The translations under genes and the position numbers were made by a program. From positions 1 to 44,035 of the forward strand of contig NW_021834938.1 of assembly GCF_006345805.1 (NCBI RefSeq): 44,035 nt of DNA. Direction: 5' to 3'. The DNA is from Octopus sinensis. Lineage: Eukaryota. The notes below the pieces were generated by a model. That model made no database searches. It was not told where the DNA came from and was given only the letters and a program-made list of their open reading frames with translations. Shown piece by piece: positions 1-35,319 of the stretch (position 1 is its first letter; every line of letters starts with the position of its first letter).

Positions 1-149
1 GAGTCAACGATTTTTAAAATAATTTACTCATCATTTTGTTTCCCATTTTTAATGCATTTTTTTTTACTATTCTTTGGCTATAACTCTCTAAAAATGCTTA
101 TATAGTTATTTCCCTTACAAACCCGAGCAACGCCGGGCGATACTGCTAG
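1..149 (+). mobile_element. Non-autonomous Helitron, 3' end
   Basis: Subterminal GC hairpin cccgagcaacgccggg followed by terminal CTAG (146-149) then T. Same family as 6489-6887. Confidence 0.8.
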
Positions 150-730
150 TTTAGAAATAAATAACTATATAGTTTTCTCTTTCTCTTTTTTTTTAAATTA
201 TATTATTATTACTAGTATTGTTGTTAACATACATACATACAAGCATATGTAATGATAATATGGTGGATGTAAACATGAACAAAACAAGAATGGAACAACA
301 ACAACAACAAACATTACTGAACGTATATAAACAGAGATACAAATATTACAGGCATCCCCCCACCACCACACATTAAATAAAATAGACCGCCACATAGAGA
401 TATAAGCAGCGCAAATGAAGACATACAATAGAAATACAAAATGGCTGACTGTTAGTAAGGATTGACCACAAATAAGTGAGAAGAAACAAAGGACCACTGA
501 TGCGGTCACAGAGTGTGACGAAAGAACTCTGACCGAAATAAGTTTAAGATTAATGTAAAAAAATAAAAATAACACTGAAGCAAAGTACCACCAAATATAT
601 AGTGCGTGTGTTTTTATTGGCTAAACTGGCAAAATGACCATTCCGAAATATAACATATCTATTTCAACACACGACTTCACATAAAAAAGAATGTGCACAA
701 CAATATATAAACGTATATATATATAATATA

Positions 731-773
<43 letters not shown>

Positions 774-807
774 ATTAGAGGTTTGAGATGATGTACAGGT
801 ATTTAAT

Positions 808-1100
808 ATTAGAAGAAATGAGGTACTCAGAAATTCGGATGGTTTTATATTTACAGATATTTATTTGTATATACATGTTTTTATACATCATATAACTTAT
901 ATAATATACCATAAATCAGCGCTTTCGTCCATTCTGGTGGATTTTTCAAATTGAGTTCAATTTTGACAAATCCACCAGAATGGACGAAAGCGTTCACATA
1001 TGATATATGATTAAGTTATATGATGTTAAAAACATGTATATACAAATAAATATCTGTAAATATAACCATCCGAATTTCTGAGTACCTCATTTCTCCTAAT
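808..1100. repeat. ~290-bp near-perfect palindrome, probably inverted Penelope-like LTR remnants
   Basis: attagaagaaatgaggtactcag... is the reverse complement of ...ctgagtacctcatttctcctaat, with the centre at ~955. The Penelope assignment is inference. Confidence 0.85.
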
Positions 1101-1377
1101 TATATATATATACATACAGGCGGACCCCATGTTTACGAATCCATTCTTTCGTAAAGTGAAACATTCGTATAGTGGGGTATTATCGTCCATTAAGAAAACA
1201 ATGGATATACCTTTAATTGTTTCCCATTAAAGAAGTTGATACTTAAAATTTCTTAAATTGGAAAAAAAAAGAAAGAAAAAGGTCAAGATAAAAATAGCAA
1301 TATTGAAGAGTATAATTTCTTTTATTAAATCACAAACAACTGAATGAAAAAATAGAAAAACATTTAAAACAAAAAAA

Positions 1378-1479
1378 GGCGATCCTACGGTATACGTACC
1401 GGAAGTTGCTTTGTTTACATTTCTGAAGATAACTGAAACCCTTCTCTCCCCACCCCCTAACCTCCTATCATATATATAT

Positions 1480-1515
<36 letters not shown>

Positions 1516-1586
1516 ATCTATTAGTATTATATATATATATACGCACTTTCTTGAAATGTATCCAGTACTTATACCGAAGTTACGCC
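1378..1586. mobile_element. Short MITE with GG-terminal imperfect TIRs (second copy 8102-8328; one end at 20143-20192)
   Basis: ggcgatcctacggtatacgtaccgga at the left versus the reverse complement of the right end, ggcgtaacttcggtataagtactgga. Internal (TA)n; no clear TSD. Confidence 0.6.
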
Positions 1587-1879
1587 CCCCCAAAATTCAA
1601 CTCCTGAAATTTAATTCGTATCCATCGGGTCTGCTGTTACTGGGGCCTCTGAGCGAATGTCAGTTCCATTTGATGCGTTTCTTTTTGTTTTCGTGGTTGG
1701 TCCATTTTAGTTTTCGGTACTTTTTGCTTTCTCCTCTACCCACCCCCATTAAAAATTCCCATTTAAAACTGGGTTATCTCCCCACTTGAAAATTGAGTTC
1801 CTGTGCGACAAGAGCTTGGATGAAACGAGTTTGATCCTGTTGATTCAATACTTCAATTAGATTTCGGGTGCTTCCCTTG

Positions 1880-2526
1880 CGCTGTATGTCTCTGGTTACT
1901 TTTGGCCCAAACATAGACAGCTCTATTATGTTGTGATCCGAGACTAATGTCGGAGTCACTTTCACATCATGGATGAGATCCATATTCTTCATGAAGCAGA
2001 GAGGCAAAATGTTATTTGCCCTAGTTGGTCTGAGCACAGCTTGCTCCATGAATAGGGCATTGGTGAGGTTGAGCAGGGACTCCACCTGTGCTTGCTTGCA
2101 ATGAGTCATTCCTGAGAGCATGAGACCTTCGGGCCATTTGACGTTGGGATAGTTGACATCACCCATAAGTAATATGGTCACGTGGTGTTCCAGATTCATG
2201 AGGATTTCTTTAATTCTTGTGAGGCAATCTTCAAACTTACCTATGTGGTTTGGGGCATCCGATGGTCAATATGTATTGTGTTGTCTTATGTATACAGTTA
2301 GAGTGTCACATAATGAATTTGAGTATGAGAGTAAGACCTGGGGTGTGAGGTCATCTTGGATGTATACAGCAACTCCACTCTGGCTCCTTTCCTTTCTGTC
2401 TGTTCGCAGTATGGTATATTTTGGTCCGTGTACTTCTCCATCCTCTATATCAGGGCTGAGGTGGGTTTCTAAGAGTGATGTGCATAGGACTTGATTGCGT
2501 ACAGCAAGGTCTCTCAGGAAGAATTT
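1880..2526 (-). mobile_element. LINE ORF2 apurinic-endonuclease fragment (CR1/L2-like), degenerate
   Basis: Translation shows APE motifs ETHL, RTDR...GVAVY, MGD(V/F)N.P...W, PTR.NNIL.L and SDH. Interrupted by stops/frameshift. Confidence 0.85.
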
Positions 2527-2942
2527 GGATCTTTTCGGTTTGAACGGCAGTTTTTAAATGATTTCCCACGCAAAACTAACACTTTTAAACTTCGTAGACT
2601 GGTAAATGTGTTTATAAAACATCTTTTCTCTTGGCTTTATCGAGAAAATTCTATAATTTGTTAGACATTTGTTGTTGTTTTTCTTCAATTTCTGCAATTT
2701 CAACCAATCAATGACGTCTATTGAGGTGAAAACATCCTGTGCCGTATGAATATGTCCCTCGCTTAAGAAACAGATTTGGTTTATTTACATTGCTGAAGAA
2801 AAAAAAGATACCCTTCCCCCCACCCCTGACCATAACCCTAAAAGAGATTTAAATGCAATAGATCGATACTAGGGTCATAATTATGGGTGACAATTTCATA
2901 TGACACCGCTAGAAAAAACTGCCGTTCAAACCGAAAAGATCC
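2527..2942. mobile_element. MITE with ~29-bp TIRs and GG termini (Merlin-like)
   Basis: ggatcttttcggtttgaacggcagttttt ... aaaaaactgccgttcaaaccgaaaagatcc. The 8-bp TSD agaaattt is perfect in the second copy. Confidence 0.88.
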
Positions 2943-3377
2943 AGAAATTTTGCTCTAATTATGATGCGACAGGCTCCCAATAATTAGTCAAAATATTGGC
3001 GTGACGACTATGCAGTCGGTAGGGGAGGAGCCATCCTGTGTCTGTTCACTGTGGTGATCTTGCGCAGTGGTGGGCAAGGTTCCCTGTCTGCGCTTGGTAT
3101 GATTGTTATAAAATGTTATCAGATTTTAATAAGATGTTTAATTTTTTTCAGTTTTCTTGTTTATTAATATTTCCCTTATTTGTTTTTCTTTTATTTTTGT
3201 TTTATTGAGAGTTAAATAATTTTTAGTAAAGGGAGATAACCAAAAGTAGCGATTTTTCTCTATTAAACATGGGGAGATAACCTAATTTTTTTAAGGGAGA
3301 TAACCAAAAGTACCGAGTTTCTTTCGTTAAAAAATTATCTGAAGCTGTTTGTTGTTAAATATTTAATAAAGCCTTCT

Positions 3378-3718
3378 GTGGAGGCGCAATGGCCCAGTGG
3401 TTAGGGCAGTGGACTCGCGGTCTTAGGATCGCGGTTTCGATTCCCAGACCGGGCGTTGTGAGTGTTTATTGAGTGAAAACACCTAAAGCTGCACGAGGCT
3501 CTGGCAGGGGATGGTGGTGATCCCTGCTGTACTCTTTTGCCACAACTTTCACTCTTACTTCCTGTTTCAAAGGGCCGGCCTTGTCACTCCCTGTGTCACG
3601 CTGAATATCCCCGAGAACTACGTTAAGGGTACACGTGTCTGTGGAGTGCTCAGCCACTTACACGTTAATTTCACGAACAGGCTGTTCCATTGATTCGGAT
3701 CAACCGGAACCCTCGTCG
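3378..3718 (+). mobile_element. tRNA-derived SINE (family A), 3' end lost at the junction with the caspase
   Basis: A box tggcccagtgg and B-box-like gtttcgattccc. Colinear with the full copy at 15312-15683 up to cctcgtcg. Confidence 0.9.
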
Positions 3719-3721
3719 ACG

Positions 3722-4573
3722 GATGCTGAACGTGTGAATGTGAGTACAGAAGCTCAGTTCCATCAACCAACTAGGGAAGATTTAATGAAATGGTTCGAAA
3801 AATATGACATGAAACATAAAAAGCGAGGTGTTGCCAACATCTTCAACAATGAAAAGTTCAAAGACCCAAAAAAACGTCCAACTCTTTACGGCTCATCAAA
3901 AGACACAGAAGATTTTAAAGCATCATTATTAAATCTTGGATTTCGTGAAGATGACATCAAAGTTCATACAGATGAAAGTGCCGATGAGATACGCAGGGCT
4001 TTGAACGAGTTTGAGCAAGATAATCCTGATATTGAAGGTAATATTGACTGCTTTATTTGTGCCATTCTGAGCCATGGTAAGGAAAATGATATCATATATG
4101 GATACGAAGGTGAAGTTGAGCTGGACGAATTGCTTTCTTACCTGAGACCCGATCGCTGTCCATCTCTGATAGAAATACCTAAATTAATCTTTCTTCAAGC
4201 ATGTCGTGGAAGCAAGATTGATGTTGGAGTCGAAAGAAACGATGCCGAGGAAGAAGAATCTGGAAAAAAGCCCCCGAAAATTCCAATCATGGCAGATATG
4301 TTGGTTTTCCATTCGTCATCAAATAAATATCCGTCAATGAAGGATAAAGATACAGGTTCGTGGTTTATGCAAACTTTAAGTAGAATGTTGATGGAATACG
4401 GCGCAGAATATGAAATTATGAAACTGTTAGCTGCGGTCTGTAACCATGTTGCCTCCCTTGAATTGCAAATTTCCTTTAATTTGGAAGGTGAAAGTGTTAA
4501 TTCTGACTTTAAACAAATGCCTCAGATTATGACGACATTGCGCAAAGAACTAAAGTTTGAACCGAGGAGGTAA
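3722..4573 (+). CDS. Caspase-3/7-like (peptidase C14A) copy 1. Single exon; lacks the paralog's ATG and splice acceptor; first in-frame ATG at 3785; may be a pseudogene
   Basis: Open frame with Y.M.HKKRG.A.IFNN, ILSHG (catalytic His), PKLIFLQACRG (Cys at 4202-4204), ADML, GSWFMQ and KQMP...TTLRKEL.F. The 3635 start in the ORF track lies inside the SINE. Confidence 0.88.
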   Translation, partial: DAERVNVSTEAQFHQPTREDLMKWFEKYDMKHKKRGVANIFNNEKFKDPKKRPTLYGSSKDTEDFKASLLNLGFREDDIKVHTDESADEIRRALNEFEQDNPDIEGNIDCFICAILSHGKENDIIYGYEGEVELDELLSYLRPDRCPSLIEIPKLIFLQACRGSKIDVGVERNDAEEEESGKKPPKIPIMADMLVFHSSSNKYPSMKDKDTGSWFMQTLSRMLMEYGAEYEIMKLLAAVCNHVASLELQISFNLEGESVNSDFKQMPQIMTTLRKELKFEPRR

Positions 4574-5311
4574 AACATTTCAGATGTGAGATCCTTAAAG
4601 AGAATCGAAGCTTCTTACGGTGAGAATTTCTGATACATCTCCATATTATACGAAAAGAATATATTTTACAAACACATATTTTAGGAACTAATATATCTAC
4701 AAGGAAGTACACAGTTTTCACGCATAATACCTACAGTATATATTGATAAATAGATTAATATGAGGTTTTCAGCCAAAAAAAAATTCCTTATGTGATTACA
4801 AACTTGATTTGACTTAATAAATATCCACTAACATTTTAAGGTGCTTAACTAAAACTATTTCCTACCACAAATTTTACTAAGAACACCAGTGAATTATAGG
4901 TCCATTCTAAATTACAAAATAATCCTACATTCTGAAAATTGAACCAACATTCTTTTATATACAACTAAATATGAACAATATTAATATCTAGGCCATTTTA
5001 TTCATGTATTTTCCTATATCGCTGGATTCGTAACAGTTTCTCTGCCAAAGAGAAATTTTTTATCTTTCTTCTCTCACTGCATTAAACTATCTCAGCACCA
5101 TTGCGTTATATCTTTTTCAATTATTCCATTTTGTTTCTTTGTTACTATGGTGAATAATCTCCTGTTATCAACACAGAGTCTCTGAAATGACAACGAAATA
5201 ATAAAATGTATAAGCTTTTACGCTAGTTTTTAATTTATGAAAATATTTAAAGTGTGAAAGAAAGGTTGTGATATAATTTTGTTGTATGCGTAAAAAAATT
5301 TATGATAAACA

Positions 5312-5440
5312 GGCGAAGGTAAAGAACATGCACTTCCGATGTTTAGGGTCGGGTTTAGGGTTAGGGTTTTGGGCTCAGGTTTTGGGTTCGGGTTAGGGTT
5401 ACGATGAAAACGAGTGGTGTGCGCATTCTTTACTTCCGCC
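5312..5440. mobile_element. Mini-MITE with GG termini and internal TTAGGG-like repeats (second copy 13608-13736)
   Basis: Imperfect TIRs ggcgaaggtaaagaacatgcac / gtgcgcattctttacttccgcc; flanks gataaaca / gataaaat. Confidence 0.65.
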
Positions 5441-5461
5441 GATAAAATAATTAAATTTCTG

Positions 5462-5882
5462 GGCGATCTTTCGTCTCTAGTAGACCTTTCAGTCGATTTC
5501 CGTAAAAAAATATATTTTTTTTACATATGGGCTTGCGGGAACTTTTGAAGTAATATACATACATATACACATACACCGAGTAAAAAATTTCAGTTATCTC
5601 TTTCTTTCACACATTACTCTCTCTGTCTCTTCACACACACTAACAGAAGCACTTCACTTACACAACATACTGTCTGTCTCCCACACCCCATCAAACGCAC
5701 ACACACACATGTACATCAATGCTTGCCATGCACGGTAACTTCAAAAGAACTTCCCTCGTCATAAATGGCTTTCTCTTAGTCTCTTTCGCTCTCATTACTT
5801 CAAAAGTTCCCGCAAGCCCATATGTAAAAAAAAATAATTTACGGAAATCGACGGAAAGGTCTACTAGAGACGAAAGATTGCC
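5462..5882. mobile_element. Foldback MITE with ~90-bp TIRs and 8-bp TSD (Merlin-like)
   Basis: ggcgatctttcgtctctagtagaccttt...gaagtaat is inverted at the right end. TSD aatttctg is clear in the copy at 13758-14177. Confidence 0.88.
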
Positions 5883-6488
5883 AATTCTGATTGTTTGCGT
5901 GAATTATCGGCTGAAGTAGCCATTAAGCAAAATACACACGGATTGAGGAGGGTGTGAATACCACCATATGTCTATACTACGACTACTAGGAGCTGTATAT
6001 GACTCCTGATTTTGGGAGGTGACTGCTATTTCTAGCGTCGGAGGTCAACAGTTTACATAGATGAAGATGACGAGAACTGTTGAGATTTTTACGGAAAAAC
6101 TTTATGTTTTGTTGAGAGAGTTTGGATGTTATTGAAATGATATTAGGATAAATGTTGAGAACTTTTCAACGTTATTGAAATAGGATTCGTTTAGTTATTG
6201 CTCGTCGTTTTTTGTAGTGAATATTTCTACCTACTTCTCGGGAAAGTGAAACTATTTGTTCGGCAATTTCCGTATAAATGTAGTGAAGCCGAACAAACAC
6301 GGAAAGCAAGAAGGCGAGGCCGTGGTACAACCACTGTTTTATCAGACGCCCAGGAAAGGAAGGAAAGAGTATTTAAAGTTTCGAGCCAAGCCCTTCTTCA
6401 GAAATACAGGCAATTCCAGAGGAAAACGGAGGAAGAAAATCGGCAATGATACACACGTGGTGACATTGTGAAATGACCGATATATATA

Positions 6489-6887
6489 TCTTTATATATA
6501 AAAGGAATTGTGTGTCTGTCTCCTACGATTTAGATTCCTACCTACTCCCACATTTTGCGGTGGCAGTTTAACCAAAACCGGGTATCTTATAGTCGTGATT
6601 CATATCGAGCCCTTCTGGGTATTAGCGCGCGTCTACGCTGAGTCTAACGATTTTTAAAAAAGTTTACATCATTTTTTTTCCATTTTATTGCATTTTTTTT
6701 CGCTATTATATACGGGAAGTAACTCTCTAAAATGTCTACGATGAGTCAACGATTTTAAAAATAATTTACCATCATTTTTTTTCCATTTTTAATGCATTTT
6801 TTTGCTATTCTTTGGTTATAACTCTCTAAAAATGCTTATAGAGTTATTTCCCTTACAAATCCGAGCAAGGCCGGGCGATACTGCTAG
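6489..6887 (+). mobile_element. Non-autonomous Helitron, complete
   Basis: 5' TC after A, 3' hairpin plus CTAG before T, no TSD. Confidence 0.85.
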
Positions 6888-8283: not shown

Positions 8284-8609
8284 AGCACTTTCTTGAAATG
8301 TATCCGGTACTTATACCGAAGTTACGCCCCCCAAAATTCAACTCCTGAAATTTGATTCGTATCCATCGGGTCTGCTGTTACTGGGGCCTCTTGAGCGAAT
8401 GTCAGTTCCATTTGATGCGTTTCTTTTTGTTTTCGTGGTTGGTCCATTTTAGTTTTCGGTACTTTTTGCTTATCTCACCCCCATTAAAAAATTGCCATTT
8501 AAAAACTGGGTTATCTCCCCACTTGAAAATTGAGTTTCTGTGGCGACAAGAGATTGGATGAAACGAGTTTGATCCTGTTGATTCAATACTTCAATTAGAT
8601 TTCGGGTGC

Positions 8610-9258
8610 TTCCCTTGCGCTGTATGTCTCTGGTTACTTTCGGCCCAAACATAGACAGCTCTATTATGTTGTGATCCGAGACTAATGTCGGAGTCACTTT
8701 CACATCATGAATGATGTCCATATTCTTCATGAAGCAGAGAGGCAAAATGTTATTCGCCCTAGTTGGTCTGAGCACAGCTTGCTCCATGAATAGGGCATTG
8801 GTGAGGTTGAGCAGGGACTCCACCTGTGCTTGCTTGCAATGAGTCAATCCTGAGAGCATGAGACCTTCGGGCCATTTGACGTTGGGAAAGTTGAAATCAC
8901 ACATAAGAAATATGGTCACATGGTGTTCAAGATTCATGAGGATTTCTTTAATTCTTGTGAGGCAATCTTCAAACTTACCTATGTGGTTTGGAGCATCCGA
9001 TGGTCAATATGTATTGTGTTGTCTTATGTATACAGTTAGAGTGTCACATAATGAATTTGAGTATGAGAGTAAGACCTGGGGTGTGAGGTCATCTTGGATG
9101 TATACAGCAACTCCACTCTGGCTCCTTTCCTTTCTGTCTGTTCGCAGTATGGCATATTTTGGTCCGTGTACTTCTCCATCCTCTATATCTGGGCTGAGGT
9201 GAGTTTCTAGGAGTGTTGTGCATAGGACTTGATTGCGTACAGCAAGGTCTCTCGGGAA
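8610..9258 (-). mobile_element. LINE endonuclease fragment, duplicate copy
   Basis: Same motifs as 1880-2526 (CDFNFP..W, PTR, SDH). Confidence 0.85.
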
Positions 9259-10120: not shown

Positions 10121-10306
10121 GTGGAGGCGCAATGGCCCAGTGGTTAGGGCAGCGAACTCGTGGTCTTAGGATCGCGGTTTCGATTCCCAGACCGGGCGTT
10201 GTGAGTGTTTATTGAGCGAAAACACCTAAAGCTCCAAAAGGCTCTGGCAGGGGATGGTGGTGATCCCTGCTGTACTCTTTTGCCACAACTTTCACTCTTA
10301 CTTCCT
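10121..10306 (+). mobile_element. SINE family A, 3'-truncated at a rearrangement junction
   Basis: Same 5' flank (aataaagccttct) as 3378 and 15312; homology stops at cttacttcct. Confidence 0.88.
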
Positions 10307-11737: not shown

Positions 11738-12029
11738 TAACAAATAAATAAATGTTATTTGAAAGCGAATGAGGAAATTTCGAAAGCCTTTCATCTCGTC
11801 TAAAGGCTGACCTGGTTTGTGCAGCTGAAGTGCTGAGCAGCCGATTGCAGTTTACATGCAACCAGTTGTCGTTTCATTTAATTCCTGTTGAAAAACAACT
11901 TCACTTTCTCTTTGGATTTCAGGTCAAAAGCAATTCGGTTGGATTTCGCAAACGCATGCGCATTAACTATCAATCTATATACCATACCCGGAACTAATTT
12001 CAGCTTATTGCATTTCTAGAACGGATGAT

Positions 12030-12881
12030 ATGGATGCTGAACGTGAGAATGTGAGTACAGAAGCTCAGTTCCATCAACCAACTAGGGAAGATTTAATGAA
12101 ATGTTTCGATAAATATGACATGACACATAAAAAGCGAGGTGTTGCTTACATCTTCAACAATGAGAATTTTAAAGACTCAAAACTTTCAACTCGTCACGGC
12201 TCATCAAAAGACACAGAAGATTTTAAAGCATCATTATTAAATCTTGGATTTCGTGAAGATGACATCAAAGTTCATACAGATGAAAGTGCCGATGAGATGC
12301 GCAAGGCTTTGAACGAGTTTGAGCAAGATAATCCTGATATTGAAGGTAATATTGACTGCTTTATTTGTGCGATTCTGAGCCATGGCGGTGAAGACGATAT
12401 CATATATGGATACGAAGGTAAAGTTGAGCTAGACGAATTGCTTTCTTACCTGAGACCCGATCGCTGTCCGTCTCTAACAGGAATACCTAAATTAATATTT
12501 ATTCAAACATGTCGTGGAAGCAAGATTGATGTTGGAGTCGAAAGAAACGATGCCGAGAAAGAAGAATCTGGAAAAAAGCCACCGAAAATTCCAATCATGG
12601 CAGATATGTTGGTTTTCCATTCGTCATCAAATAAATATCCGTCAATAAGGGATAAAGATACAGGTTCATGGTTTATGCAAACTTTAAGTAGAATGTTGAT
12701 GGAATACGGCGCAGAATATGAAATTATGAAACTGTTAGCTGCGGTCTGTAACCATGTTGCCTCCATTGAATTGCAAATTTCCCTTATTTTGAAAGGTGAA
12801 AGGGTTAATTCTGACTTTAAACAAATGCCTCAGATTATGACGACATTGCGCAAAGAACTAAAGTTTGAACCGAGGAGGTAA
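12030..12881 (+). CDS. Caspase-3/7-like (peptidase C14A) copy 2. Single coding exon probably starting at 12020
   Basis: 283-aa ORF with SHG, QTCRG (Cys 12510-12512), GSWFMQ and KQMP. Upstream are a branch-like actaat and acceptor gcatttctag (12018-12019); in-frame TDDMDA. Confidence 0.92.
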   Translation: MDAERENVSTEAQFHQPTREDLMKCFDKYDMTHKKRGVAYIFNNENFKDSKLSTRHGSSKDTEDFKASLLNLGFREDDIKVHTDESADEMRKALNEFEQDNPDIEGNIDCFICAILSHGGEDDIIYGYEGKVELDELLSYLRPDRCPSLTGIPKLIFIQTCRGSKIDVGVERNDAEKEESGKKPPKIPIMADMLVFHSSSNKYPSIRDKDTGSWFMQTLSRMLMEYGAEYEIMKLLAAVCNHVASIELQISLILKGERVNSDFKQMPQIMTTLRKELKFEPRR

Positions 12882-13757
12882 AATATTTCAGATGTGAGAT
12901 CCTTAAAGAGAATCGAAGCTTCTTACGGTGAGAATTTCTGATACAACTCCATATTATACGAAAAGAATATATTTTACAAACATATTTTAGGAACTAATAT
13001 ATCTACAAGGAAGTACACAGTTTTCACGCATAATACCTACAGTATATATTGATAAATAGATTAATATGAGGTTTTCAGCAGAAAAAAATTGCTTATGTGA
13101 TTACAAACTTGATTTGACTTAATAAATATCCACTAACATTTGAAGGTGCTTAACTAAAACTATTTCCTACCATGAATTTTACTAAGAACACCAGTGACTT
13201 ATAGGTCCATTCTAAATTACAAAATAATCCTACATTCTGAAAATTGAACCAACATTCTTTTATATACAACTAAATATGAACAATATTAATATGTAGGCTA
13301 TTTTATTCATGTATTTTCCTATATCGCTGGATTCGTAAAAGTTTCTCTGCCAAAGAGAAATTTCTTCTCTCACTGCATTAAACTATCTCAGCACCATTGC
13401 GTTATATCTTTTTCAATTATTCCATTTTGTTTCTTTGTTACTATGGTGAATAATCTCCTGTTATCAACACAGAGTCTCTGAAATGACAACGAAATAATAA
13501 AATGTATAAGCTTTTACGCTAGTTTTTAATTTATGAAAATATTTAAAGTGTGAAAGAAAGGTTGTGATATAATTTTGTTGTATGCGTAAAAAAATTTATG
13601 ATAAACAGGCGAAGGTAAAGAACATGCACTTCCGATGTTTAGGGTCGGGTTTAGGGTTAGGGTTTTGGGCTCAGGTTTTGGGTTCGGGTTAGGGTTACGA
13701 TGAAAACGAGTGGTGTGCGCATTCTTTACTTCCGCCGATAAAATAATTAAATTTCTG

Positions 13758-14177
13758 GGCGATCTTTCGTCTCTAGTAGACCTTTCAGTCGATTTCCGTA
13801 AAAAAATATATTTTTTTTACATATGGGCTTGCGGGAACTTTTGAAGTAATATACATACATATACACATACACCGAGTAAAAAATTTCAGTTATCTTTTCT
13901 TTCACACATTACTCTCTCTGTCTCTTCACACACACTAACAGAAGCACTTCACTTACACAACATACTGTCTGTCTCCCCACCCATCAAACACACACACACA
14001 ATGTACATCAATGCTTGCCATGCACGGTAACTTCAAAAGAACTTCCCTCGTCATAAAATGGCTTTCTCTTAGTCTCTTTCGCTCTCATTACTTCAAAAGT
14101 TCCCGCAAGCCCATATGTAAAAAAAAAATAATTTTTACGGAAATCGACGGAAAGGTCTACTAGAGACGAAAGATTGC
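13758..14177. mobile_element. Foldback MITE, duplicate copy
   Basis: ~90-bp TIRs; TSD aatttctg on both sides. Confidence 0.88.
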
Positions 14178-14801
14178 TAATTTCTGATTGTTGCGTGAAT
14201 TATCGGCTGAAGTAGCCATTAAGCAAAATACACACGGATTGAGGAGGGTGTGGCTGGTATATGTGTGAATACCACCATATGTCTATACTACGACTACTAG
14301 GAGCTGTATATGACTCCTGATTTTGGGAGGTGACTGCTATTTCTAGCGTCGGAGGTCAACAGTTTACATAGATGAAGATGACGAGAACTGTTGAGATTTT
14401 TACGGAAAAACTTTATGTTTTGTTGAGAGAGTTTGGATGTTATTGAAATGATATTAGGATAAATGTTGAGAACTTTTCAACGTTATTGAAATAGGATTCG
14501 TTTAGTTATTGCTCGTCGTTTTTTGTAGTGAATATTTCTACCTACTTTCTCGGGAAAGTGAAACTATTTGTTCGGCAATTTCCGTATAAATGTAGTGAAG
14601 CCGAACAAACACGGAAAAGCAAGAAGGCGAGGCCGTGGTACAACCACTGTTTTATCAGACGCCCAGGAAAGGAAGGAAAGAGTATTTAAAGTTTCGAGCC
14701 AAGCCCTTCTTCAGAAATACAGGCAATTCCAGAGGAAAACGGAGGAAGAAAATCGGCAATGATACACACGTGGTGACATTGTGAAATGACCGATATATAT
14801 A

Positions 14802-14926
14802 TCTTTATATATAAAAGAGAATTTGTGTGTCTGTCTCCTACGATTTAGATTCCTAACTACTCCCACATTTTGCGGTGCAGTTTAACCAAAACCGGGTATC
14901 TTATAGTCGTGATTCATATCGAGCCC
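14802..14926 (+). mobile_element. Helitron 5' fragment truncated by deletion
   Basis: Matches 6489-6613, then switches abruptly to unit-internal sequence. Confidence 0.8.
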
Positions 14927-15660
14927 TATTGGCGTGACGACTGTGCAGACGTCAGGGGAGGCCATCTCGTGTCTGTTCACTGTGGTGATCTTCCGCAGTG
15001 GTGGGCAAGGTTCCCTGTCTGCGCTTGGTATGAATTGTTATAAAAATGTTATTAGATTTAAATAAGATGTTTAATTTTTTCAGTTTTCTTGTTTATTAAT
15101 ATTTCCCTTATTTGTTTTCTTTTATTTTTTTGTTTTATTGAGAGTTAAATAATTTTTTAGTAAAGGGAGATAACCAAAAGTAGCGATTTTTCTCGTAAAA
15201 AATGGGGAGATAACCTAATTTTTTAAGGGAGATAACCCAAAAGTACCGAGTTTCTTTCGTTAAAAAAATTATCTGAAGCTGTTTGTTGTTAAATATTTAA
15301 TAAAGCCTTCTGTGGAGGCGCAATGGCCCAGTGGTTAGGGCAGCGGACTCGCGGTCTTAGGATCGCGGTTTCGATTCCCAGACCGGGCGTTGTGAGTGTT
15401 TATTGAGCGAAAACACCTAAAGCTCCACGAGGCTCCGGCAGGGGATGGTGGTGATCCCTGCTGTACACTTTCACCACTCTTACTTCCTGTTTCTGTTGTA
15501 CCTGTATTTCAAAGGGCCTTGTCACTCTCTGTGTCACGCTGAATATCCCCGAGAACCACGTTAAGGGTACACGTGTCTGTGGAGTGCTCAGCCACTTACA
15601 CGTTAATTTCACGAGCAGGCTGTTCCGTTGATTCGGATCAACCGGAACCTTCGTCGTCGG
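14927..15660. repeat. Third, partial copy of the duplicated unit
   Basis: Matches 2995-3718 and 9736-10305. It is joined to a truncated Helitron at 14926 ('gagccct|attggcgtgacg'). Confidence 0.9.
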
Positions 15661-15683
15661 AACCGACGGAGTGCTTCCATCCC
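15312..15683 (+). mobile_element. Full-length SINE family A with 13-bp TSD
   Basis: aataaagccttct at 15299-15311 and 15684-15696. Confidence 0.93.
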
Positions 15684-22035: not shown

Positions 22036-22315
22036 TGTTTAATTAATTATTAATTGTCTCATAAAACTTATATTGTTTTGTTTCTCTGTTCTTTCAGAAT
22101 GTCTGATGGTATTGGCAGCAGAGGCATTGTATCTTAAGACGATGGTTTAAAGAATAAAGGAACCTGTTATACAAAGCAGATGTAACTATATTCATATAAA
22201 CCTGTGATGGAATTGCCATGAAATATTTCCAGAGGACGAAGATATTTGTTAGAAATACAATATAAAAATAGAGAAAGGAAAAGACATCCTAAGAAAGAGA
22301 GGAAGTCTATGGGAA

Positions 22316-23749
22316 ATGTCTGGGGTTTGTGCTGCATTGAATGTGAAGAAAGAAAGCCAAGGGAGTGGTTTACCTGATGAGATGTTGAAAAAGAAGAAGG
22401 GCAAAACTTCATATCACTGTGATATTTGTAAAAAGACATTCCAGAAACAACGTAACCTGACTATTCACAAACGCATTCATACAGGAGAAAAGCCATACCA
22501 CTGTGATATATGTGGTAGTTTATTCTTGTTAAAAAATCACCTAAATGTACACAAACGTATTCACACAGGAGAGAAACCTTACAGCTGTGATATCTGTGGG
22601 AGATCTTTCACACAAAGTGGTGACTTAAAAGCTCACAAACGCACTCACACAGGAGAGAAACCATATCATTGTGATATCTGTGGTAAATCCTTTTCACAAG
22701 GCAACCAAGTTACTGTGCACAAACGCATCCATACAGGGGAGAGACCATTTCATTGTGATATCTGTGGCAAATCCTTCATTGGGAGTTATGTGCTAAAGGC
22801 TCACAAACGCATTCATACTGGAGAAAAACCTTATCACTGTGATATCTGTGGTAAATCATTCACTGGGAGTGGTCACGTAGCCACTCATAAACACATTCAT
22901 ACAGGAGAGAGGCCATATCAATGTGATATCTGTGGTAAATCATTCTCTCGTAATCATCACTTATCTTTTCACAAACAGATTCATACAGGAGAGAAACCAT
23001 TTCCCTGTGATATCTGTGGTAAATCATTCTCTCAAAAATCTGGCTTAGTTGTCCACAAACGTATTCATACCGGAGAGAAGCCATTTCACTGTGAAATCTG
23101 TGGTAAATCATTCTCCCAGGCACGTCATGTAACTGATCACAAAAGCGTTCATACAGGTGAGAAGCCATATCACTGTGATGTCTGTGGCAAATCATTCTCT
23201 CAAAAATATGGCTCAACTGTCCACAAACGTAGTCATACAGGAGAGAGACCTCACAGCTGTGACATCTGTGCTAAATCATTCTCTCAGACCTGTGACTTAA
23301 AAAAACACAAAATTACTCACACTGGAATCAGACAGTATCACTGTGATATCTGTGGTAAATCATTCTCTGGAAGTGGGGACTTGACTAGACACAACAGAAT
23401 TCATACAGGGGAGAAGCCATTTCATTGTGATATCTGTGGTAAATCATTCCCTGAAAAAAATCTCTTAACTATACACAAACGCATTCATACAGGAGAGAAA
23501 CCATATCACTGTGATATCTGTGGTAAATCATTCGCTCGAAGTAGCGATTTTACTAAACACAAACGTATTCATACACGAGAGAAGCCATTTCACTGTGATA
23601 TCTGTGGTCAATCATTCTCTCAAAGCAGTCACTTAACTAAACACAGACGTATTCACACAGGAGAGAAGCCATATCACTGTGACAGCTGTGGTAAATCTTT
23701 CTCTCATCCAAATACCCTCACTACACACAAATGTGGAGAAAAAGCATAA
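22316..23749 (+). CDS. C2H2 zinc-finger protein with 15 canonical fingers plus 1 degenerate terminal finger
   Basis: 477-aa ORF of 28-aa repeats CxxC-12-HxxxH with TGEKP linkers and a basic KKKKGK segment. Acceptor ttctttcag at 22096-22097; aataaa at ~23865. Confidence 0.95.
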
Positions 23750-24827: not shown

Positions 24828-24884
<57 letters not shown>

Positions 24885-27800
24885 GACAGGCTTCTTTCAG
24901 TTTCCGTCTACCAAATCCACTCACAAGGCATTGGTCGGCCCAGGGCTATAGCAGAAGACACTTGCCCAAGGTGCCATGCAGTGGGACTGAACCCAGAACC
25001 ATGTGGTTGGTTAGCAAGCTACTTACCACACAACCACTCCTACACCTATGATATATATATATACATACATACGATGGGCTTCTTCCAGTTTCCGTCTACC
25101 AAATCCACTCACAAGGCATTGGTCGGCCCAGGGCTATAGCAGAAGACACTTGCCCAAGATGCCACGCAGTGGGACTGAACCCAGAACCATGTGGTTGGTT
25201 AGCAAGCTACTTACCACACAACCACTCCTACACCTATGATATATATATATACATACATACGATGGGCTTCTTCCAGTTTCCGTCTACCAAATCCACTCAC
25301 AAGGCATTGGTCGGCCTGAGGCTATAGCAGAAGACACTTGCCCAAGATGCCACGCAGTGGGACTGAACCCGGAACCATGTGGTTGGTAAGCAAGCTACTT
25401 ACCACACAGCCACTCCTACACCTATGATATATATATATATACATACGATGGGTTCTTCCAGTTTCCGTCTACAAATCCACTCACAAGGCATTGGTCGGCC
25501 CAGGCTATAGCAGAAGACACTTGCCCAGATGCCACGCAGTGGGACTGAACCCGGAACCATGTGGTTGGTTAGCAAGCTACTTACCACACAACCACTCCTA
25601 CACCTATGATATATATATATACATACATACGATGGGCTTCTTCTTCCATTTCCGTATACCAATCCACTCACAAGGCATTGTCGGTCGGCCCAGGGCTATA
25701 GCAGAAGACACTTGCCCAAGATGCCACGCAGTGGGACTGAACCCGAACCATGTGGTTGGTAAGCAAGCTACTTACCACACAACCACTCCTACACCTATGA
25801 TAATATATATACATACATACGATGGCTTCTTCCAGTTTCCATCTACCAAATCCACTCACAAGGCATTGGTCGGCCCAGGGCTATAGCAGAAGACACTTGC
25901 CCAAGATGCCACGCAGTGGGACTGAACCCAGAACCATGTGGTTGGTTAGCAGGCTACTTACCACACAGCCACTCCTGCGCCTATATATATACGACGGGCT
26001 TCTTTCAGTTTCCGTCTACTAAATCCACTAACAAGGCATTGGTCAGCCCGGGGCTATAGCAGAAGACACTTGCCCAAGATGCCACGCAGTGGGACTGAAC
26101 CCAGAACCATGTGGTTGGTAAGCAAGCTACTTACCACACAACCACTCCTACACCTATGATATATATATATACATACATACGATGGGCTTCTTCCAGTTTC
26201 CATCTACCAAATCCACTCACAAGGCATTGGTCGGCCCGAGGCTATAGCAGAAGACACTTGCCCAGATTCCACGCAGTGGGACTGAACCCAGTACCATGTG
26301 GTTGGTTAGCAAGCTACTTACCACACAGCCACTCCTGCGCCTATATTATATACGACGGGCTTCTTCAGTTTCCGTCTACTAAATCCACTAACAAGGCATT
26401 GGTCAGCCCGGGGCTATAGCAAGAAGACACTTGCCCAAGATGCCACGCAGTGGGACTGAACCCAGAACCATGTGGTGGTAGCAAGCTACTTACCACACAA
26501 CCACTCCTACACCTATGATATATATATATACATACATACGATGGGCTTCTTCCAGTTTCCATCTACCAAATCCACTCACAAGGCATTGGTCGGCCCGAGG
26601 CTATAGCAGAAGACACTTGCCCAAGATGCCACGCAGTGGGACTGAACCCGGAACCATGTGGTTGGTTAGCAAGCTACTTACCACACAACCACTCCTACAC
26701 CTATGATATATATATATACATACATACGATGGGCTTCTTCCAGTTTCCATCTACCAAATCCACTCACAAGGCATTGGTCGGCCCAGGGCTATAGCAGAAG
26801 ACACTTGCCCAAGATGCCACGCAGTGGGACTGAACCCAGAACCATGTGGTTGGTTAGCAAGCTACTTACCACACAGCCACTCCTGCGCCTATGATATATA
26901 TATATACATATATACGATGGGCTTCTTCCAGTTTCCATCTACCAAATCCACTCACAAGGCATTGGTCGGCCCAGGGCTATAGCAGAAGACACTTGCCCAA
27001 GATGCCACGCATGGGACTGAACCCGGAACCATGTGGTTGGTAAGCAAGCTACTTACACACAGCCACTCCTGCGCCTATGATATATATATATACATACATA
27101 CGATGGGCTTCTTCCAGTTTCCATCTACCAAATCCACTCACAAGGCATTGGTCGGCCCAGGCTATAGCAGAAGACACTTGCCCAAGATGCCACGCAGTGG
27201 GACTGAACCCAGAACCATGTGGTTGGTTAGCAAGCTACTTACCACACAGCCACTCCTGCGCCTATGATATATATATATACATACATACGATGGGCTTCTT
27301 CCAGTTTCCATCTACCAAATCCACTCACAAGGCATTGGTCGGCCCAGGGCTATAGCAGAAGACACTTGCCCAAGATGCCACGCAGTGGGACTGAACCCGG
27401 AACCATGTGGTTGGTAAGCAAGCTACTTACCACACAGCCACTCCTGCGCCTATGATATATATATATACATACATACGATGGGCTTCTTCCAGTTTCCATC
27501 TACCAAATCCACTCACAAGGCATTGGTCGGCCCAGGGCTATAGCAGAAGACACTTGCCCAAGATGCCACGCAGTGGGACTGAACCCAGAACCATGTGGTT
27601 GGTTAGCAAGTTACTTACCACACAGCCACTCCTACACCTATGATATATATATATACACACATACGATGGGCTTCTTCCAGTTTCCATCTACCAAATCCAC
27701 TCACAAGGCATTGGTCGGCCCAGGGCTATAGCAGAAGACACTTGCCCAAGATGCCACGCAGTGGGACTGAACCCGGAACCATGTGGTTGGTAAGCAAGCT

Positions 27801-30053
27801 ACTTACCACACAGCCACTCCTGCGCCTATGATATATATATATACATACATACGATGGGCTTCTTCCAGTTTCCATCTACCAAATCCACTCACAAGGCATG
27901 GTCGGCCCAGGGCTATAGCAGAAGACACTTGCCCAAGATGCCACGCAGTGGGACTGAACCCAGAACCATGTGGTTGGTAAGCAAGCTACTTACCACACAA
28001 CCACTCCTACACCTATGATATATATATATACATACATACGATGGGCTTCTTCCAGTTTCCGTCAACCAAATCCACTCACAAGGCATTGGTCGGCCCAGGG
28101 CTATAGCAGAAGACACTTGCCCAAGATGCCACGCAGTGGGACTGAACCCAGAACCATGTGGTTGGTTAGCAGGCTACTTACCACACAGCCACTCCTGCGC
28201 CTATATATATATACGACGGGCTTCTTTCAGTTTCCGTCTACTAAATCCACTAACAAGGCATTGGTCAGCCCGGGGCTATAGCAGAAGACACTTGCCCAAG
28301 ATGCCACGCAGTGGGACTGAACCCGGAACCATGTGGTTGGTAAGCAAGCTACTTACCACACAACCACTCCTACACCTATGATATATATATATACATACAT
28401 ACGATGGGCTTCTTCCAGTTTCCATCTACCAAATCCACTCACAAGGCATTGGTCGGCCCAGGGCTATAGCAGAAGACCTTGCCCAGATTCCACGCAGTGG
28501 GACTGAACCCAGAACCATGTGGTTGGTTAGCAAGCTACTTACCACACAGCCCTCCTGCGCCTATATATATATACGACGGGCTTCTTTCAGTTTCCGTCTA
28601 CTAAATCCACTAACAAGGCATTGGTCAGCCCGGGGCTATAGCAGAAGACACTTGCCCAAGATGCCACGCAGTGGGACTGAACCCAGAACCATGGGTTGGT
28701 AAGCAAGCTACTTACCACACAACCACTCCTACACCTATGATATATATATATACATACATACGATGGGCTTCTTCCAGTTTCCATCTACCAAATCCACTCA
28801 CAAGCAGGGTCGGGTCGCCCGAGGCTATAGCAGAAGACACTTGCCCAAGATGCCACGCAGTGGGACTGAACCCGGAACCATGTGGTTGGTTAGCAAGCTA
28901 CTTACCACACAACCACTCCTACACCTATGATATATATATATACATACATACGATGGGCTTCTTCCAGTTCCCATCTACCAAATCCACTCACAAGGCATTG
29001 GTCGGCCCAGGGCTATAGCAGAAGACACTTGCCCAAGATGCCACGCAGTGGGACTGAACCCAGAACCATGTGGTTGGTTAGCAAGCTACTTACCACACAG
29101 CCACTCCTGCGCCTATGATATATATATATATACATACATACGATGGGCTTCTTCCAGTTTCCATCTACCAAATCCACTCACAAGCATTGGTCGGCCCAGG
29201 CTATAGCAGAAGACACTTGCCCAAGATGCCACGCAGTGGGACTGAACCAGAACCATGTGGTTGGTTAGCAAGCTACTTACCACACAGCGACTCCTGCGCC
29301 TATGATATATATATATACATACATACGATGGGCTTCTTCCAGTTTCCATCTACCAAATCCACTCACAAGGCATTGGTCGGCCCAGGGCTATAGCAGAAGA
29401 CACTTGCCCAAGATGCCACGCAGTGGGACTGAACCCAGAACCATGTGGTTGGTAAGCAAGCTACTTACCACACAGCCACTCCTGCGCCTATGATATATAT
29501 ATATACATACATACGATGGGCTTCTTCCAGTTTCCATCTACCAAATCCACTCACAAGGCATGGTCGGCCCGAGGCTATAGCAGAAGACACTTGCCCAAGA
29601 TGCCACGCAGTGGGACTGAACCCAGAACCATGTGGTTGGTTAGCAAGCTACTTACCACACAGCCACTCCTACACCTATGATATATATATATACACACATA
29701 CGATGGGCTTCTCCAGTTTCCATCTACCAAATCCACTCACAAGGCATTGGTCGGCCCAGGGCTATAGCAGAGATACCTTGCCCAAGATGCCACGCAGTGG
29801 GACTGAACCCGGAACCATGTGGTTGGTAAGCAAGCTACTTACCACACAGCCACTCCTGCGCCTATGATATATATATATACATACATACGATGGGCTTCTT
29901 CCAGTTTCCATCTACCAAATTCACTCACAAGGCATTGGTCGGCCCAGGGCTATAGCTGAAGACACTTGCCCAAGATGCCACGCAGTGGGACTGAACCCAG
30001 AACCATGTGGTTGGTAAGCAAGCTACTTACCACACAGCCACCCCTGCGCCTAT
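24618..30053 (-). repeat. SINE-derived satellite: ~28 tandem ~188-bp SINE-B heads (24880-30053) attached to a single tail (24618-24820)
   Basis: Unit ends (cctat) counted at 25048, 25236 ... 30051. On the minus strand each unit carries A-box-like tgg(c/t)tgtgtgg and B-box-like ggttcagtccc. Confidence 0.95.
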
Positions 30054-30224
30054 GTACAGAATCTGGAGAAGTCTGGTGGCTGGTTAGAAACAAAGCAAGC
30101 ATGCATCGCAGCAAACCCCAATTTGTTCTGCAAGAAAAACGGGATCTTTTCAGCCCCGTCTCATGAATATTTTTCAGACCTGGAATAGCTGTCTTACATA
30201 TATTGGAATTTTTTTTAGTCTTCT

Positions 30225-31734: not shown

Positions 31735-32054
31735 AGACTTTATTTATCCATCTTAGTTTGTCTTATTAGGTACAGTGTAAATTTGGCTGTTTTCCAGCAG
31801 TAATGTCTCAAAGATCTTTTGTAATGTTTGTGTCAGATGTAAGTGCTAGAAAGAGATGGATATGCGGGGAAGAAGTATGTACGCCTGGCAAGGTGCTGAA
31901 TAAGATAAAAAGTGAGACAAGTTAACTCTGCTCAATGCCACTTGAAAGAGAGAGATTTTGTTTGTGTTCTGTCTTTATACATGTTCAAAAGCTGAAGCTA
32001 GATCGAGAGAACGCATTCAGCTGTGCTGAATTAAAGATGCTCAGGAAAAGAACA

Positions 32055-32945
32055 GGCCCTTACTCTCAGATGGTAATGCTTGAGGGACAGACAGTTGGCT
32101 AAGGCCCTTACTCTCAGAGGGTAATGCTTGAGGGACAGACAGTTGGCTAAGGACCTTACTCTCTGATGGTAATGCTTGAGGGACAGACAGTTGGCTAAGG
32201 CCCTTACTCTCAGAGGGTAATGCTTGAGGGACAGACAGTTGGCTAAGGACCTTACTCTCAGATGGTAATGCTTGAGGGACAGACAGTTGGCTAAGGCCCT
32301 TACTCTCAGATGGTAATGCTTGAGGGACAGACAGTTGGCTAAGGCCCTTACTCTCAGAGGGTAATGCTTGAGGGACAGACAGTTGACTAAGGCCCTTACT
32401 CTCAGATGGTAATGCTTGAGGGACAGACAGTTGGCTAAGGCCCTTACTCTCAGAGGGTAATGCTTGAGGGACAGACAGTTGACTAAGGCCCTTACTCTCA
32501 GAGGGTAATGCTTGAGGGACAGACAGTTGGCTAAGGCCCTTACTCTCAGAGGGTAATGCTTGAGGGACAGATAGTTGGCTAAGGCCCTTACTCTCAGAGG
32601 GTAATGCTTGAGGGACAGACAGTTGGCTAAGGCCCTTACTCTCAGAGGGTAATGCTTGAGGGACAGACAGTTGGCTAAGGCCCTTACTCTCAGAGGGTAA
32701 TGCTTGAGGGACAGACAGTTGGCTAAGGCCCTTACTCTCAGATGGTAATGCTTGAGAGACAGACAGTTGACTAAGGCCCTTACTCTCAGAGGGTAATGCT
32801 TGAGGGACAGACAGTTGGCTAAGGCCCTTACTCTCAGATGGTAATGCTTGAGGGACAGACAGTTGGCTAAGGCCCTTACTCTCAGATGGTAATGCTTGAG
32901 GGACAGACAGTTGGCTAAGGCCCTTACTCTCAGAGGGTAACGCTT
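32055..32945. repeat. 48-bp minisatellite, ~18.5 copies
   Basis: Unit ggcccttactctcaga(g/t)ggtaatgcttgagggacagacagttggctaa; starts at 32055 and 32919 are 18 x 48 apart. Confidence 0.97.
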
Positions 32946-33754: not shown

Positions 33755-34600
33755 TTATGCTTTTTCTCCACATTTGTGTGTAGTGAGGGTATTTGGATGA
33801 GAGAAAGATTTACCACAGCTGTCACAGTGATATGGCTTCTCTCCTGTATGAATACGTTTGTGGACAACTGAGCCAGATTTTTGAGAGAATGATTGACCAC
33901 AGATTTCACATTGATATGGTTTCTCTCCTGTGTGAATGCGTTTGTGAGAAATGAAAGTACTTCTATAAGAGAATGATTTGCCACAGATATCACACTGATA
34001 AGGCCTCTCTCCTGTATGAATGTGTTTGTGGGTTGCTAAGTGATCAATTCGAGCGAATGATTTACCACAGATATCACAGTGATGAGGTTTTTCTCCAGTA
34101 TGAATGCGTTTATGAGCTTTTAGCACATGACTCCCAGTGAAGGATTTACCACAGATATCACAGCCGTAAGGCCTCTCCCCTGTATGAATGCGTTTGTGTT
34201 TGGTAACTTGGTTGCCTTGTGAAAAGGATTTACCACAGATATCACAATGATATGGTTTCTCTCCTGTATGAGTGCGTTTGTGAGCTTTTAAGTCACCACT
34301 TTGTGCAGAAGATTTACCACAGATATCACAGCTGTAAGGTTTCTCTCCTGTGTGAATACGTCTGTGTACAGTTAAGTTATGTTTCAACAAGAATAAACTA
34401 CCACATATATCACAGTGGTATGGCTTTTCTCCAGAATGACCTTTTTTGTGAATAGCTAGAATACACTGTTTCTGGAATGTCTTTGTACAAATATCACAGT
34501 GATATGAAGTTTTGCCCTTCTTCTTTTTCGACATCTCATCAGGTAAACCACTCCCTTGGCTTTCTTTCTTCACATTCAATGCAACACAAACCCCAGACAT
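33755..34600 (-). CDS. C2H2 zinc-finger protein with 8 fingers plus 1 degenerate terminal finger; paralog of 22316-23749
   Basis: 281-aa ORF with near-identical N- and C-termini, exactly 588 bp (7 x 84) shorter than its paralog. Acceptor at 34819-34820. Confidence 0.93.
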
Positions 34601-35319
34601 TTCCCATAAACTTCCTCTCTTTCTTAGGATGTCTTTTCCTTTCTCTATTTTTATATTGTATTTCTAACAAATATCCTCGTCCTCTGGAAATATTTCATGG
34701 CAATTCCATCACAGGTTTATATGAATATAGTTACATCTGCTTTGTATAACAGGTTCCTTTATTCTTTAAACCATCGTCTTAAGATACAATGCCTCTGCTG
34801 CCAATACCATCAGACATTCTGAAAGAACAGAGAAACAAAACAATATAAGTTTTATGAGATAATTAATAATTAATTAAACAGCAGACATTCAACAGTGGAA
34901 ATTTAACAATTCTTTACTGACAAGCTTTGGACATGACACCTGATTGCTTTCAAATTAAATCATAGAAACTTGTGCTAAGATCCCTAATGTATCTTTGGGC
35001 TTCAATATCTATGCCACTAAAGAACGTGGTAAATAGCTTGCTTACCACACACTTGGAACCAGGTTCGTTCCTGCTGCATGGCAGTTTGGGCAAGTGTCTT
35101 CTACTATAGCCTCGGGCCGACCACAGACATTCAACAGTGGAAATTTTACAATTCTTTACTGACAAGCTTTGGACATGACACCTGATTGCTTTCAAATTAA
35201 ATCATAGAAACTTGTGCTCAAATCTACATATTTACAGGCTACGGGCACAATTTAATTTTGTGTAACATTAAATACATAATTTGGGAGGGCAACCAGATGT
35301 AAAAAAACCTTGCTGGGAC

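Follow-up and report, generated by a model that had tools for sequence, protein, structure and literature searches.

Background

Cleavage after aspartate (Asp) is the defining trait of caspases; the basic-P1 proteases of the same clan CD, such as metacaspases and paracaspases, have S1 pockets lined by acidic residues. The caspase S1 pocket is formed by Arg179, Gln283 and Arg341 (caspase-1 numbering, used throughout), the last of which additionally anchors P3 (PMC12550167). Some caspase-like proteins depart from this arrangement. Mouse caspase-12 carries an Arg341Lys substitution, is predicted to be a non-functional enzyme and has been classed with the pseudocaspases or as a modulator (PMC11121540), and the rodent caspase-12 gene is described as being under purifying selection (PMC11630849). 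Similarly, caspase-3/7-4 of the mussel Mytilus galloprovincialis has Arg341 substituted, for which an altered specificity has been proposed (PMC3037946). The regulator cFLIP-L also has a caspase fold and acts through heterodimer formation (PMC11121540).

Caspase loci can also be labile. The primate caspase-1 locus has been described as a product of tandem duplication, gene conversion, pseudogene formation and positive selection (PMC11630849). An expansion of effector caspases in molluscs is already known, from a tree that holds three Octopus species (PMC11543851), and cephalopod caspases are listed in PMC9389742 and PMC4199593, in the available portions of which S1 loss is not mentioned. Within the literature covered, which omits most subscription journals, no paper was found that describes S1 losses in a clade of intronless caspases from octopus, and the literature searched held nothing usable on the kinetics of S1-arginine mutants.

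The window analysed here, an entire 44,035-base contig of the 2.72-Gb Octopus sinensis genome, contains two caspase copies, one of which has both S1 arginines replaced. An initial annotation of this DNA interpreted that copy as a caspase of shifted P1 specificity or a substrate-blind decoy.

Results

The S1 pocket of copy 1

The first caspase sequence, copy 1 (3722..4573, forward strand), is an intronless coding remnant matching Pfam PF00656 (E 3.4e-49), for which caspase-7 was the top match in a fold search (E 1.7e-16). It lies within an open frame at 3605-4573 that has no stops and no frameshifts. Domain, fold and the His-Cys dyad in SHG and QACxG motifs mark copy 1 as a caspase (C14A) by descent: in alignment with caspase-7, the catalytic His (CAT, 4073..4075, forward strand) is intact, as are Gln283 (CAA, from 4196) and the catalytic Cys (TGT, from 4202) of the QAC motif (4196..4204, forward strand). 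Gly238 and Ser339 are likewise intact, and Trp340 is replaced by Met. The second sequence, copy 2 (12030..12881, forward strand), is complete, intronless and has both arginines, as does its O. vulgaris orthologue, P0022. It reads QTCRG, not the QACRG of copy 1, with the changed codon at 12507-12509, a variant common to P0022.

Both substituted codons are as the initial annotation gave them: CTT (Leu) at 3884..3886, where copy 2 has CGT (12192-12194), and AAG (Lys) at 4340..4342, where copy 2 has AGG (12648-12650), all on the forward strand. Their assignment to caspase-3 Arg64 (Arg179, an S1 position) and Arg207 (Arg341, an S1/S3 position) is borne out by a phmmer alignment to caspase-7 (PDB sequences, E 1.7e-37), which is free of gaps in both loops and places the Leu on the L1-loop Arg and the Lys on the SWR-motif Arg. 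The trio at 179, 283 and 341 is therefore Leu/Gln/Lys, not the Arg/Gln/Arg of Asp-specific caspases, and none of the three is acidic, unlike the residues expected to line S1 in a basic-P1 clan CD protease. A new Arg lies three residues before the Leu, aligned with a Met three residues before the caspase-7 Arg. An AlphaFold model of copy 1 has a mean pLDDT of 59, falling below 50 in the 341 loop, such that the pocket and the new Arg are below judgeable quality; the caspase fold itself is borne out by the model.

It is rare for a caspase with an intact dyad to lack both S1 arginines. Among outside caspases, the dyad is found in 148 of 162 full domains from 148 representatives (34 partial domains being left out); 142 of these 148 dyad-bearing domains have both arginines, five lack only Arg341 and one lacks both.

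The Leu at position 179 would be unable to bind the P1 carboxylate, eliminating one of two salt bridges to P1 Asp, and the Lys at 341 would hold both the P1 carboxylate and P3 less well than Arg, weakening the other. With one salt bridge removed and the other weakened, cleavage after Asp is predicted to be strongly reduced; as no acidic residue has been gained, the protein would probably be Asp-blind and largely inactive, not retargeted. Hence the loss of Asp binding anticipated by the initial annotation is the expected result of the substitutions. The shift in P1 specificity that it also suggested is without positive support: the pocket has acquired no new residue, acidic or otherwise, and Gln283 is unchanged.

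Array structure and the 5' end of copy 1

The two copies belong to a tandem array. The region 3721-6613 duplicates 12032-14927 at 96.5%, the DNA preceding copy 1 resembles that following copy 2 (2994-3723 and 14927-15661, a 92% match), and a partial further unit of the array occupies 1-3563. Duplicated frames at 1774-2265 and 8470-9003 (reverse strand) look to us like a LINE endonuclease fragment; the surrounding 3.1 kb is missing after copy 2. The 3' flank of copy 1 (4574..6613, forward strand) differs from that of copy 2 by just 0.7% (14/2022), against 4.9% (42/849) for the coding parts. Positive selection was considered as the cause of this gap and rejected: silent divergence between the coding parts is high as well (dS 0.074), so recent homogenisation of the flanks fits better. 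P0022 falls in the 90% cluster of copy 1, and has both arginines with a start resembling copy 2 and an end resembling copy 1. The caspase array in the window is unstable.

The frame of copy 1 had been described as undisrupted, which is accurate with respect to stops and frameshifts but not to its 5' end. A high-copy repeat (3380..3723, forward strand), with a word depth in the DNA runs in the millions and which we take to be a tRNA-type SINE, is fused by its 3' end to codon 2. Elements of this type also begin at 10123, ending early at 10306, and at 15314, where the element is complete. At the rearrangement junction (3719..3724, forward strand) the SINE end and the coding sequence have a short run of bases in common, with similarity to copy 2 beginning at 3721; the point of fusion is 3721-3723, and the native ATG and upstream DNA are absent. 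Upstream of copy 2 lies a conserved, promoter-like pair of motifs, CGCATGCG and CCGGAACT (11953..11995, forward strand), presumably NRF1-like and ETS-like respectively, which copy 1 has lost. CGCATGCG is present in 11 of 18 other loci of the clade described below and the second, MGGAA-type motif in 15 of 18; neither was found in three outgroup loci. An AG preceding the copy 2 ATG was considered as a splice acceptor, but is GG in the paralogue L003; this idea was therefore dropped in favour of a single-exon gene.

Copy 1 has thus been stripped of its start codon and of the regulatory DNA ahead of it, as is typical of a 5'-truncated pseudogene, and for that reason is likely to be a crippled duplicate. 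The junction may have been produced by rearrangement inside the unstable array, and the lost motifs may represent the promoter, in which case their removal would have silenced or weakened the gene. On balance we lean towards reading copy 1 as a 5'-truncated tandem duplicate that is likely silent or weakly expressed, with any protein made from an internal ATG likely to be folded, Asp-blind and largely inactive. Two features count against silence. The first in-frame ATG opens a 262 aa frame (3785..4573, forward strand) that comprises the whole catalytic domain and is found by exact look-up as P0021, a predicted protein in NCBI/UniRef, with a second in-frame ATG, at 3809, also ahead of the whole domain; and the SINE end brings a CCGGAACC motif to 18 bases ahead of the junction.

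In runs guessed to be RNA, contigs were found with the exact difference pattern of copy 2. Those of one such run, X4, continue 5' of codon 2 into the native upstream sequence that is missing from copy 1. All depth at 3885 is Arg in the four runs guessed to be RNA, as is all depth at 4341 in three of them, with 18.3 of 25.8 in X4; such contigs reveal presence only, in animals that may or may not carry copy 1, and were given no weight as evidence. No contig spanning the SINE junction was present among those listed for the DNA runs and the guessed RNA runs.

Support for the two codons

The codons were checked in contigs from four DNA-type runs (X1, X2, X3 and X7), of which X2 and X7 represent one sample. 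A 112-base contig in X1 matches copy 1 exactly over 3806-3917, spanning the Leu codon; over this interval copy 2 would show 11 base differences together with a 3-base gap, and the next paralogue, L003, nine base differences. The presence of the Leu-loop haplotype in another organism's DNA run counts against the truncated-duplicate reading. At the second site, position 4341, a 94-base contig in X7 has one difference and no G, and in X2 the G is missing from 155 of 356 depth units, meaning that a non-Arg codon is present. Plain sequencing error was thereby ruled out codon by codon. The assembly-error check proposed in the initial annotation therefore came out in favour of each codon singly, but never of both in one run: X1 has only Arg at 4341, X2 and X7 have only Arg at 3885, and X3 has no cover at either. 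Leu and Lys occur together in none of the four DNA runs, the contigs showing presence and not absence, and the assembly is the sole basis for placing them in cis.

This distribution would also be expected if the array were variable in copy number and had been collapsed, with Leu from one copy or allele and Lys from another joined by the assembly consensus, in which case no gene with both changes would exist. Such a mosaic is compatible with the range of depth in X2, where single contigs span 60 to 615, with the window being an entire unplaced contig of 44 kb, and with the patchwork nature of the coding parts, as seen in P0022. Yet real recombination within the array would look identical, the contigs do not speak to absence, and just 456 bases separate the two codons; we regard the mosaic as unlikely.

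An intronless clade of octopus caspases

A search of the genome gave 53 caspase matches, the best 30 of which were taken for comparison. Copy 1 belongs to a set of at least 19 intronless paralogues; these 19 loci, which may include haplotype duplicates, fall in a 38-row clade (SH-aLRT 100 in a quick tree) whose named members are without exception from Octopus. Just two of the best 150 matches among 50% cluster representatives exceeded 50% identity, both being Octopus proteins. Classified at five key sites, eight of the 19 loci are canonical, four retain the dyad with a changed S1 pocket (copy 1, L004, L005 and L014) and seven have a broken dyad, such that 11 of the 19 lack at least one key residue. 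Arg341 has been replaced in separate branches by Lys, Ile, Gly, Glu or Thr/gap, and across the clade Arg179 has become Leu or Cys and Gln283 Glu or Ala. The search for further Leu/Lys variants suggested by the initial annotation was productive: P0008 has Lys at 341, and Leu179 has arisen independently in the O. vulgaris protein P0020, whose dyad is intact and whose residues at 283 and 341 are altered. For several broken types, orthologues kept as open frames are present in O. bimaculoides or O. vulgaris, and no counterpart of copy 1 was present among the O. vulgaris protein matches listed.

These recurrent S1 losses make the double change in copy 1 appear less singular than the initial annotation held; its branch also evolves at a near-neutral rate, as detailed below, and the native start and upstream motifs are gone.

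Other members of the family show distinct pocket changes. Gln283 is replaced by Glu in L004, L005, L006 and L008, two of which have an intact dyad; the change introduces an acidic side chain into the S1 pocket. With Arg341Ile in addition, and its upstream motifs retained, L004 is a stronger candidate than copy 1 for an altered specificity. L014 and P0020 are orthologues with an intact dyad, Gln283Ala and loss of Arg341; their L1 loops differ strongly and Arg179Leu is found only in P0020. A second caspase expansion in the genome (L017-L027) is nearer to ordinary caspase-3/7 and includes Arg341Glu in L024 and L027, with weaker positive selection (2dL 13.9, nine loci).

Selection and clustering of changes

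Selection was tested with our own codon model, the one-ratio likelihood of which agreed with that of IQ-TREE. Of the 19 clade loci, 14 were used, after a near-duplicate and four strongly diverged loci had been dropped. M2a was favoured over M1a (2dL 67.9), with 16% of sites at a dN/dS of 3.1, and the positively selected sites concentrate in loops around the active site. The signal persisted when gappy loops were masked (2dL 27.7), when thirds of the alignment were given their own trees (p 0.015, 6e-5 and 0.032) and when copy 1 was omitted (33.5), although gene conversion may still inflate these tests. Of the two S1-arginine columns, neither Arg179 (posterior 0.00) nor Arg341 (posterior 0.24) was called as positively selected. 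Five altered paralogues jointly have a dN/dS of 0.66 (p 0.002 against 1; 0.70, p 0.047 with columns masked), values that include time before breakage. The branch leading to copy 1 has a dN/dS of 1.04, not different from 1 (0.55 with the L1 loop masked, not significant), and that leading to copy 2 of 0.41.

There are 13 clear and three probable amino-acid changes private to copy 1. Seven lie in the 18 codons of the L1 loop, which contains Arg179 (3836..3889, forward strand), where there are no private silent changes; a scan for seven of about 15 changes in 18 codons gave a P of about 0.001. The chance of hitting both arginines is 0.003-0.008, calculated for one gene and before allowing for around 30 paralogues. 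The L1 cluster and the hit on both arginines are poorly explained by pure decay. Ten of the 16 private changes lie within 170 bases of the SINE junction, and breakpoints can acquire clustered changes through error-prone repair; this crowding makes such repair an alternative to selection. The L1-loop changes may have arisen either before truncation, under selection, or after it, through decay or through error-prone repair close to the junction.

Selection on the L1 loop would be a component of the proposal that copy 1 is proteolytically active and has a P1 preference that is either new or relaxed, for instance for small neutral or hydrophobic residues. The private L1 cluster fits this, as do the intact His, Cys, Gly238 and Ser339, the independent occurrence of Leu179 in P0020, where the dyad is intact and positions 283 and 341 are altered, and the known occurrence of P1 shifts in clan CD (PMC11121540). 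Nevertheless we consider it very improbable: no acidic residue is found at 179, 283 or 341, replacement of Arg341 affects the P3 anchor as well (PMC12550167), the gene is 5' truncated, and the model at the 341 loop is too weak to indicate any pocket.

An expressed, substrate-blind pseudo-caspase, translated from the ATG at 3785 or 3809, is a further reading. It might pair with copy 2 or another paralogue to damp or tune it, in the manner of cFLIP or caspase-12, or soak up caspase inhibitors of pathogens. The whole domain is open, and the C-terminal strand, which forms the dimer contact in caspases, is identical in the two copies. Other broken paralogues are kept open in O. bimaculoides or O. 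vulgaris and five of them have a joint dN/dS below 1, and the clade as a whole is under positive selection with or without masking. In addition, bacterial OspC-family enzymes, which occur in Vibrio as well, are reported to modify exactly this arginine in caspase-7 (PMC9239266). Against this, the native start and upstream motifs of copy 1 are gone, its branch has a dN/dS of 1.04, the listed O. vulgaris matches lack a counterpart, and the values for broken paralogues cover the period before breakage too. We judge a pseudo-caspase role for copy 1 to be rather doubtful.

Other features of the window

Two C2H2 zinc-finger frames form an inverted pair, 93% alike over 1.4 kb: one of 498 aa (22253-23749, forward strand) and one of 302 aa (33755-34663, reverse strand), shorter by 196 aa, equal to seven 28 aa fingers. 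At 24863-30054, a 188-base unit that is also common as a dispersed repeat occurs in 28 tandem copies. A 48-base minisatellite of 18.6 copies (32054-32945) gives two open frames of more than 320 aa on the reverse strand, which are probably not a gene.

Discussion

The family-level pattern is more interesting than copy 1 alone. It is conceivable, and we put it forward tentatively, that diversifying selection on the intronless octopus caspase array has repeatedly rewired the Asp pocket, giving rise, as part of an arms race in immunity, to a repertoire of decoys and of 'caspases' that are not Asp-specific, with copy 1 and P0020 as independent, dyad-intact losers of both arginines. By analogy, OspC-type modification is a possible reason for the repeated loss of the S1 arginine. 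Should any of these octopus proteins cut after another residue, the family would be a natural experiment in P1 switching within clan CD; should its members be decoys, pressure from pathogens on cell death in cephalopods would be indicated. Paralogues that have upstream motifs and are shared across species, such as L004 and L014/P0020, are better test subjects than copy 1.

Copy 1 shares with caspases-3 and -7 (MEROPS C14A, PF00656) the fold, a short prodomain, SHG, QACRG and Gln283, but differs in the replacement of both S1 arginines, Met at Trp340, the lack of introns and the loss of the first ATG and upstream DNA. Mouse caspase-12 is likewise a full caspase with Arg341 changed to Lys; by contrast, it is a CARD-bearing inflammatory caspase for which the available account names only the Arg341 change, whereas copy 1 is without Arg179 too. 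Caspase-3/7-4 of M. galloprovincialis is, like copy 1, a molluscan executioner-type caspase with Arg341 substituted, but Arg179 is given as conserved in all mussel caspases of that study. As with copy 1, cFLIP-L adjoins an active paralogue; unlike copy 1, which keeps the dyad, it is without catalytic residues and has DEDs. Finally, the primate caspase-1 locus offers a parallel in its tandem duplication, gene conversion, pseudogenes and positive selection, but the Octopus expansion is an independent one, of intronless, executioner-type genes.
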